Source: Podarcis erhardii
Lineage: Eukaryota
DNA: 64,000 nucleotides
Direction: 5' to 3' (one strand)
Assembly (NCBI GenBank): GCA_964252035.1
Contig: OZ176201.1
Below, one piece after another: positions 37,564-54,978 of the stretch; position 1 is the first letter of the stretch, and each line of letters opens with the position of its first letter. Made by a program: the position numbers and the translations under genes. The notes under the pieces are model-generated. The model was not told where the DNA came from. It ran no database searches and worked only from the letters and a program-made list of their open reading frames with translations.

Positions 37564-37660
37564 GTGTATCTGAAGAAGTGTGCATGCACACAAAAGCTTA
37601 CACCCAGAACAAACTTAGTTGGACTCTAAGGTGCTACTGGACAATTTTTAATTTTTATTT
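37564..37660 (+). mobile_element. Penelope-like LTR fragment with a mutated hammerhead
   Basis: Colinear with 53535-53635: gtatctgaagaagtgtgcatgcacacAaaagcttacac...aaggtgctactgg. Confidence 0.8.
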
Positions 37661-52772: not shown

Positions 52773-52913
<141 letters not shown>

Positions 52914-53436
52914 TGACACCCCCATAAACACAGCAAGAGAGAGCAGTTTCTTTCCTGACAGATTAGAGAATTCTGGGAAATAATTAAATATTTTGGAAAG
53001 CAAAGCCTGGGAAAAGTCTTCAATTAGCAATAATTTTGCCTCAGATTAACCGCTACACTACTACCACTGCACAATTATAGTACCTGCTAGTTCTTTTATA
53101 TAGATGATACATTGCACATAAATATTAATGCAAATGCCTATAGGACAAACAAGGCTCCCTGGACCAGATATTCCCCAGGGAGTAGTAGTAAGGGGTAGGC
53201 ATTCTGCCTCTTAATTGGTCAAACATCCCAGTACCAGCCTATGCATGAAGAAAGCAGTTATGTTAAAGACCCATCAGAAGAGTGATACTGCCTTTAAAAC
53301 CAAGGAACATTTCACTGTAGAGTTTTACACAGGATGAAATGTTACAGATAGGTAGCCGTGTTGGTCTGCCATGGTCAAAACAAAATAAAAAAATTCCTTC
53401 CAGTAGCACCTTAAAGACCAACTGAGTTAGTTCTAG

Positions 53437-53474
53437 GTATGAGCTTTCGTGTGCATGCACACTTCTTCAGATAC
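53437..53474 (-). ncRNA. Mirror-image minimal hammerhead ribozyme on the - strand
   Basis: Exact reverse complement of 53535-53572 within the palindrome. Confidence 0.7.
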
Positions 53475-53534
53475 ACTGAAACAGAAGTCACCGGACCTTT
53501 CTATATAGAAAGGTCCGGTGACTTCTGTTTCAGT

Positions 53535-53572
53535 GTATCTGAAGAAGTGTGCATGCACACGAAAGCTCATAC
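53535..53572 (+). ncRNA. Minimal type I hammerhead ribozyme (Penelope-type), intact core
   Basis: GUAU-CUGAAGA-A-GUGUGC/AU/GCACAC-GAAA-GCUC^AUAC: 4-bp stem I, 6-bp stem II, palindromic AGCU stem III. Predicted cleavage after C53568. Confidence 0.75.
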
Positions 53573-53658
53573 CTAGAACTAACTCAGTTGGTCTTTAAGG
53601 TGCTACTGGAAGGAATTTTTTTATTTTGTTTTGACAGGATGAAATGTACTTGTCATTA

Positions 53659-53900
53659 CAGTGGTACCTCGGGTTACATACGCTTCAGGTTACATACGCT
53701 TCAGGTTATAGACTCCGCTAACCCAGAAATATTACCTCGGGTTAAGAACTTTGCTTCAGGATGAGAACAGAAATCGTGCTCCGGCGGCACGGCGGCAGCG
53801 ATAGGCCCCATTAGCTAAAGTGGTGCTTCAGGTTAAGAACAGTTTCAGGTTAAGTAAGGACCTCTGGAACAAATTAAGTACTTAACCCGAGGTACCACTG
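53659..53900. mobile_element. Tc1/mariner(pogo)-type MITE
   Basis: TIRs cagtggtacctcgggtta / taacccgaggtaccactg with TA on both sides. Confidence 0.92.
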
Positions 53901-54078
53901 TATTAAAAGCTCCAAGGCCCCTTTTCTGACTCGCTTGGGTTGGAGATCTTTCTGGTTATTTTGCCATGGTAGTTTGTCTCTTTGCCCCCCACAGCTGAGG
54001 TCAGGGAGCACAGAAATCTCCCATGGAGCAGAATGCCCCAGGGTGCATTCCACATCTCTCAGGAAGACTTCTCCCAAA

Positions 54079-54227
54079 GTGTAGATAAGGGTTGCAGAAC
54101 CTGTGGCCTTCCAGATGCTGCTGGACTCTGACTCAGCTTCAGCCAATATGGCTAATAGTCGGGGATGATGGGAGTTGTAATCCAGCAACATATGGAGGGC
54201 CACAGGTTCCCCATCTCTGATCTACAT
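54079..54227. mobile_element. Short hAT-like MITE copy
   Basis: Inverted arms gaacctgtggccttccagatgctgctgga / tccagcaacatatggagggccacaggttc. Confidence 0.75.
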
Positions 54228-54473
54228 GCAAGGAGTCACCTTACTGAGTGGTATGGAAAGCACCCTGACCAATAATAATAATAATGATGATGATGATATA
54301 GAATAGAACTTTAGAATGTTAAGGAGAAAACTGTTCTAGAATCCTCTCTGACTTGCCAGCTTTCTGTGTACCAGGAAATGTTGAGGGCAGCAGTGGTCAA
54401 ACATACCAACTAACACCTACAATGTGAAGTGTGACTCATTCAACTCTGATATAGAGTGGCTGTAACAGCAACA

Positions 54474-54684
54474 GGGCACATCCATACTGTACATTTAAAG
54501 CACATCCAATGCACATTTAAAGCACACAACTTCCCCCAAAGAATCCTGGAAACTGTAGTTTGTTAAGGCTGCTAGGAACCGTACCTCTGTAAGGGAAAAC
54601 TACAGTTCCCAGGAATCCTTGGGGGAAGTCATATGCTGTAAATGTGCACTGAATATACTTTAAAGGTATGGTGTGGATCTGACC
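54474..54684. mobile_element. Hairpin MITE-like repeat
   Basis: Arms 54530-54561 and 54597-54628 are reverse complements (3 mismatches in 32). The termini are also inverted-similar. Confidence 0.7.
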
Positions 54685-54687
54685 TAA

Positions 54688-54978
<291 letters not shown>

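Follow-up and report, generated by a model that had tools for sequence, protein, structure and literature searches.

Endonuclease-bearing Penelope-like elements (PLEs) insert in a layout which consists of an inverted pLTR, a tail of 30-40 nt on one side only and a target-site duplication (TSD), as described for Pen2a_Av of Adineta (PMC3846280) and for PLEs in general (PMC8557442; this and all other papers and the preprint named here are drawn on in excerpt). These two papers attribute the inverted structure either to an antisense template on which self-priming takes place or to resolution by the endonuclease. For the PLE of the green anole, PAc (Poseidon_Ac), it was shown in vitro that both strands are cleaved and extended and that two adjacent reverse transcriptase (RT) start sites bound the tail (PMC11167929); that element belongs to the Poseidon clade, whereas the element described below is Neptune-type. 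The excerpts of PMC11167929 and PMC8557442 leave the insertion step of PLEs open, and by term counts inverted or palindromic insertions are not discussed in the available text of PMC11167929. Furthermore, palindromic repeats that are hyper-edited have been described for frog Harbinger and lizard Penelope elements, the latter with >40,000 editing sites (PMC5625713).

The window analysed here, i.e. the whole stretch of 64,000 nt of Podarcis erhardii DNA, contains an insertion with this known anatomy, and all family features that were tested are present at the locus or in its parent element. It lies in an intron of CACNA1A and is composed, together with its surroundings, of the following features:

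52803..52908, plus strand: CACNA1A (Cav2.1) exon upstream of the insertion, identical at 36/36 positions to human Cav2.1 1919-1954
52909..54841, plus strand: host intron of 1,933 nt, GC-AG by reading-frame fit
53329..53342, plus strand: left TSD copy, present as a single copy in the contig of organism B; its last 2 nt are also element letters
53343..53373, minus strand: PLE tail with the start of the element ORF (ATG 53372-53370), on one arm only
53374..53504, minus strand: left arm, a partial pLTR with the element sense on minus, 100% identical to the natural copies L013 and L033
53501..53508, no strand: self-complementary octamer, an 8-nt microhomology of both arms and outward TATA-like box, as seen from the continuation in L013, L006 and L029
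53505..53635, plus strand: right arm, by arm comparison the same stretch of pLTR in inverted form and without the tail, with the element sense on plus
53528..53535, plus strand: initiator-like motif by position, 30 nt from the TATA-like box; mirror at 53474-53481, minus strand
53535..53572, plus strand: minimal type I hammerhead motif after the descriptor in the excerpt of PMC4209133, predicted cut after 53568; mirror at 53437-53474, minus strand
53634..53647, plus strand: right TSD copy; its first 2 nt are also letters of the arm
53657..53902, no strand: older, unrelated high-copy inverted-repeat element, MITE-like and TA-flanked, present in organism B too

The two arms of 131 nt each are 100% complementary with 0 nt between them, and the next longest perfect palindrome in the window has arms of 10 bp. 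A sequence-only reading of the window had described this palindrome of 262 bp without spacer or mismatch, the 31 additional Penelope nucleotides on its left and a 14-bp TSD around the whole, and all of this is borne out, as the nucleotides at 53343-53373 match the element and a relative holds the empty site. In organism B a contig of 2,241 nt aligns with record positions 1767-2209 to 52900-53342 and with 2196-2241 to 53634-53679. The two matches have exactly 14 letters in common, with 443 letters to one side and 32 to the other. The contig, which runs into the MITE-like element 10 nt downstream of the insertion, represents the empty site and carries the duplicated sequence once. Since it holds exactly one 14-nt copy, the TSD is 14 nt long, and an extended direct repeat of 19 nt as TSD is ruled out. 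Contigs of organisms C and E also stop matching at 53342 and continue beyond, and only organism B is counted as a confirmed empty site. The flank differs from organism B at 4 of 443 letters (0.9%), and the insertion either postdates the split from this organism or is unsorted across it. From the sequence alone it had been called very recent. Its youth is supported by its absence in organism B and by the 100% identity of left arm and tail to the natural copy L033 over 168 nt, whereas the identity of the arms dates it weakly and is ruled out as proof, because 0 differences in 131 nt would have a probability of 0.31 even were the insertion as old as the split. The insertion is usable as a presence/absence marker between close species.

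Like other insertions of endonuclease-bearing PLEs, the CACNA1A copy has head-to-head partial pLTRs, a 31-nt tail with the ORF start on one arm, a TSD around the whole and an overlap at the inverted junction; with the rotifer pLTRs (excerpt of PMC3846280) it shares a TATA-like box that is readable both ways and a downstream initiator. In contrast to them it has no ORF body between the repeats, and its junction lies on the TATA-like word itself, which makes it spacer-less. It resembles PAc in the position of the hammerhead in the pLTR near the ORF start and in two fixed start positions that bound the tail, PAc being the one for which extension of both DNA strands in vitro is reported (PMC11167929, excerpt). 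However, the PLE family of this insertion has the CX2-5CxxC linker of Neptune/Nematis, and its ribozyme is predicted to cut upstream of the ATG and not 26 nt downstream of it.

The family from which the arms derive is abundant. Using an exact-word pattern search, 23,508 matches of an arm 23-mer and 5,964 matches of a 28-mer of the young subfamily were counted in the 1.5-Gb genome, and the reversed control gave 0 in both cases. The family has a tandem/pLTR organisation, as 3,010-bp tandem units are found in L031, where an ORF of 910 aa contains RVT_1 (438-586) and GIY-YIG (808-856), both over the Pfam cut-off, and a CX4CX2C linker at residue 770. The palindrome arm is 93% identical to the pLTR of L031 and 100% to L033. 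A CX2-5CxxC linker between RT and endonuclease is given as diagnostic of Neptune/Nematis in the excerpt of PMC8557442, and the vertebrate PLE clades in that of a 2026 retrozyme preprint are Neptune and Poseidon only. By its sequence, the element is thus almost certainly a 5'-truncated insertion of a Neptune-type PLE, and the Penelope-like origin with an inverted segment, as first proposed, is confirmed by the copies with RT and GIY-YIG. L031 (G000:C1:960000-969999) itself comprises four near-identical full-length units of 3,010 bp in two tandems arranged head to head, which is a multi-kilobase inverted repeat with intact ORFs.

In element coordinates (R1 = 53341), the minimal hammerhead spans R96-134, the initiator-like A is R137 and the TATA-like octamer lies 30 nt upstream at R161-168; the region of R137 is likely, from these motifs, to be the 5' end of the element RNA. 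Core, bulge, the G-C first pair of helix II, a palindromic two-base helix III and a 4-bp helix I of the hammerhead motif were located, and helix II is palindromic. An Rfam search gave 23 matches, none of which reached the gathering score and none of which was a hammerhead family; the best score for a miRNA precursor was 63.7 against a gathering score of 90, with generic hairpin matches. No hammerhead fold is predicted for the element motif alone, and minimal hammerhead motifs are described as dependent on dimers or protein (PMC4209133 and PMC11167929, excerpts). With about 10 ORF codons and two ribozyme motifs that are opposed and not in tandem, the insertion encodes nothing and cannot move by itself.

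To see how common this layout is, all insertions behind the first 100 matches of the young 28-mer (first 15.5 Mb of contig C1) were collected, which gave 67 young insertions, 41 inverted head to head and 26 single. The inverted layout is therefore the commonest one for this family, and 41/67 is a lower bound, since the singles L116 and L139 are degenerate inverted insertions. All counts refer to this set of 67; the underlying table has 75 rows, of which L001, the first L067 row, L150 and L151 are mis-paired or degenerate. A subfamily-neutral list of 100 matches of the 23-mer gave 20 head-to-head pairs and 1 tail-to-tail pair. An inverted 5'-truncated copy with a tail at one end and a TSD was found at the CACNA1A locus and in 41/41 inverted insertions, with a TSD of 12-14 bp in 35 of the 41. 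One of the 41 is spacer-less (82-bp arms), and three have perfect arms of 243-381 bp with spacers of 1-5 nt; values for spacers >60 nt are unreliable. Perfect arms of 381 and 363 bp with a 1-nt spacer, longer than those of the CACNA1A palindrome, occur in the region 804-1843 of L097 and at 413-1172 of L136. Extrapolated to the whole genome, there would be about 4,000 young insertions, 2,400 of them inverted and 180 with perfect arms of at least 131 bp and spacers of at most 5 nt. The CACNA1A locus is consequently one of thousands and belongs to the upper tail for cleanness without being unique; its value is that of a clean record of PLE insertion.

As the locus is symmetric, it cannot itself separate priming from two ends from fold-back, and the family has to be consulted. 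In 41/41 inverted insertions one arm has the tail and the other one lacks it, and the outer end of the tail-less arm lies at R29-63, mostly at 31-46. Single insertions start at the tail in 14/26 cases and at R33-59 in 12/26, and therefore both positions act as start sites on their own. The tail-less arm reaches further in by at least 5 nt in 19/41 insertions (up to 773 nt); the tail arm does so in 6 and neither arm in 16, with the reservation that secondary central deletions could have made some of the asymmetric junctions; the arms of L103 and L132 do not overlap. As a copy cannot exceed its template, tail-less arms that are longer than their partner are not copies of the tail arm. Among the 82 inner arm ends, 28 lie at R134-137 and only 3 at R138-150, as if cDNA had run off at the 5' end of the RNA. 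Both arms extend past R150 in 11 insertions, one arm in 1 and neither in 29 (p = 4e-9), and in the subfamily-neutral sample the subfamily alleles are common to both arms in 32/34 pairs, compared to 27% if independent, a concordance that would be inflated if the subfamilies were active in separate waves. That the arms pass R150 together and share subfamily alleles points to one template. The two discordant pairs, L036 at two positions and L038 at one, fit two RNAs or later conversion and not one RNA; in L036 the two diagnostic positions at which the arms differ lie in the region 537-760.

The 41 junctions comprise 12 overlaps, 4 blunt joints and 25 insertions, and the long inserts are copied from nearby arm sequence, as in microhomology-type end-joining. 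Junction inserts templated from nearby sequence are a signature of polymerase-theta joining. In L096, L109, L110, L160 and L164 short templated repeats are iterated at the inner ends of the arms, and these are the clearest signs of repeated anneal-extend cycles in joining. A known parallel is the twin priming of L1, whose 5' inversions arise when cDNA synthesis on one RNA is primed from either target end and the products are joined by microhomology within a TSD. The internal position at which the second primer anneals varies in L1, the cDNAs do not overlap, and no palindrome results. By contrast, the two starts in the PLE family keep a fixed distance of about 35 nt and for the most part the cDNAs overlap completely, while the non-overlapping arms of L103 and L132 are L1-like, as in classic twin priming.

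Why the CACNA1A copy has no spacer can be read from uninverted copies. L013, L006 and L029 continue through the whole octamer, which is therefore native to the element and shared by both arms, so that the junction is an 8-nt overlap and not blunt. The spacer is absent because the arms meet inside the self-complementary TATA-like word of the element itself, which forms the palindrome centre. Joints centred on this octamer exist at six places in the genome, the CACNA1A locus included. One is a near twin on another contig (L053/L163), whose perfect arms measure 129 bp and which has flanks of its own and a 12-bp duplication; among the others, three have short repeated synthesis between the arms and one is a single arm with about 8 nt copied back. 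Spacer-less joints at a 14-nt self-complementary word, helix II of the ribozyme, are found 321 times. The pattern of a blunt joint at the RNA start has 33 matches, at least one of which belongs to a longer templated junction (L125).

Taken together, the locus is a head-to-head insertion of a Neptune-type PLE joined at the octamer, with two-ended priming on one RNA and end-joining as its probable origin. The endonuclease would have made a staggered cut with nicks about 12-14 nt apart. From one target 3' end, cDNA synthesis would then have begun at the outer limit of the tail, the putative first RT start site, and from the other target end at a second site about 33-45 nt further in, now presumably marked by the outer end of the right arm. 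The two cDNAs would have copied the same sequence in opposite genomic orientation with the tail on only one of them, and as both arms run past the likely RNA start, the template was probably a read-through or full-length RNA. The cDNA ends would have annealed via the 8-nt word, which is present in the sequence, and fill-in would then yield the perfect palindrome and the duplication. Two-ended priming at this very locus is held with somewhat less assurance, as the better bet, and that PLEs in general integrate by fixed-site double priming on one RNA with the host joining the cDNAs is favoured with a little more caution still. If true, double priming would account alike for the inversion of the pLTR, the tail on one side only, the cDNA run-off where the RNA starts and the spacer-less palindromes at self-complementary words, and PLEs would continually give rise to thousands of perfect intronic hairpins and to the heavy editing of Penelope in the lizard brain. 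A literature search in which subscription journals were thinly covered returned no double-priming account of PLE inversions. Within the excerpts at hand, PMC5753468 and PMC12910113 contain nothing on palindromic Penelope insertions, and the 2026 retrozyme preprint does not treat an origin of inverted insertions by double priming.

In fold-back, the tail-primed cDNA would have stopped at the octamer, snapped back on itself, been copied back to about R35 and been joined to the other target end. This is in line with the excerpt of PMC3846280, where junction palindromes are read as self-priming, and it would account for the symmetric arms and the single template. Short snap-back does occur at the octamer, since the single arm of L159 ends there with about 8 further nt copied back, and L160, L162 and L164 show short repeated synthesis at the same word. 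Moreover, in 5 of the 11 pairs with both arms past R150 the arms end within 15 nt of each other, the tail arm being equal or longer in all; such level ends are predicted by fold-back, but a shared broken RNA end would also give them. On the other hand, the copying of the second strand must stop exactly where 12 of the 26 singles start, and fold-back gives neither the 19 insertions with a longer tail-less arm nor the arms of L103 and L132. In addition, the 8-nt word on its own forms a hairpin stem of only 2-3 bp, compared to a full duplex of 8 bp between two cDNAs. The family statistics thus favour priming from both ends on one RNA over the published self-priming, and we consider fold-back rather unlikely for this insertion. 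With these counts, double priming and fold-back can be tested against each other as the origin of inverted pLTR and tail.

It is far less probable that a longer inverted insertion with a spacer was cut back to the self-complementary word at a later time, when a cruciform broke and was repaired. Inverted repeats that are long and have little spacer are generally prone to breakage (PMC7999016, excerpt) and longer inverted insertions exist, yet the insertion is young and intact in its TSD and at both outer ends, the inner ends in the family mostly cluster at the likely RNA start and are not random, and no second allele was seen. Scarcely credible is an artefact of assembly or of a fold-back read. 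The junction contigs of organism A, one reaching from the flank 19 letters into the tail and the other holding 25 letters of the right arm before it continues into the flank, enter the element by less than the bridging threshold of 31 letters and may derive from the source sample of the assembly. Nevertheless, the two contigs show opposite orientations of the element, the flanks are unique and collinear, the duplication is an exact one of a 14-bp site that is single in organism B, and the same anatomy recurs in 41 of 67 insertions that are independent and have TSDs of their own. The empty site also settles in favour of a real insertion what the sequence-only reading had argued from the TSD. 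Two-ended priming followed by joining at the octamer remains the preferred reading.

In the CACNA1A pre-mRNA the insertion is predicted to fold into a stem of 129 bp with a 4-nt loop (-254.6 kcal/mol for a 341-nt stretch; z = -37, with 0/100 shuffles equally stable), and both strands are able to fold. A long dsRNA hairpin had been expected from the palindrome, and the prediction agrees apart from a stem slightly shorter than the full 131 bp. The editing reported for lizard Penelope is a family property which makes ADAR editing of this hairpin likely in kind, and for the CACNA1A pre-mRNA it is plausible by analogy. As in the hyper-edited repeats, a self-folding repeat in a pre-mRNA would be the ADAR target, with editing of this copy as a candidate case; unlike them, the palindrome was built at insertion and is not part of the element consensus. 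Inverted PLE insertions may thereby offer a structural reason for the mass A-to-I editing of lizard Penelope repeats. Self-cleavage of the intron is, according to the fold model, unlikely, because the sense hammerhead emerges after its complement and is predicted to be buried in the long hairpin, and because minimal motifs cleave poorly without dimer or protein. Dicer processing of the hairpin has no locus-specific support. The same is true for the suggested fragile site: a long palindrome without a spacer is generally a site at risk (PMC7999016, excerpt), but hundreds of spacer-less joints of the family, including those of an older subfamily, persist in the assembly.

An effect of the insertion on CACNA1A is unsupported, and the insertion is probably near neutral. 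The exon upstream is presumably exon 38 by human numbering. Two alternative exons of the 37a/37b type lie further upstream at about 38.9 and 39.9 kb, and with these and the match to Cav2.1 1919-1954 the proposed location in intron 38 is consistent. The donor of the host intron appears to be GC, because only that cut holds the frame into the exon at 54842. The insertion begins about 430 nt past this donor, and if splicing were affected at all, this would most likely come about through a weak GC donor lying at that distance before a long hairpin. The same intron contains further inverted-repeat elements at 53657-53902, 54039-54267 and 54473-54685 with arms of 25, 96 and 89 nt and complementarities of 92%, 73% and 81%, respectively, and therefore imperfect hairpins were already present there; the element at 53657-53902 is, as we assume, of the Tc1/mariner type. 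The left arm puts an AATAAA hexamer (53384-53389) on the pre-mRNA strand, which would pair within the hairpin. Finally, an older single fragment of the same PLE family (87% identical) is found at 37564-37649 near the alternative exon pair.
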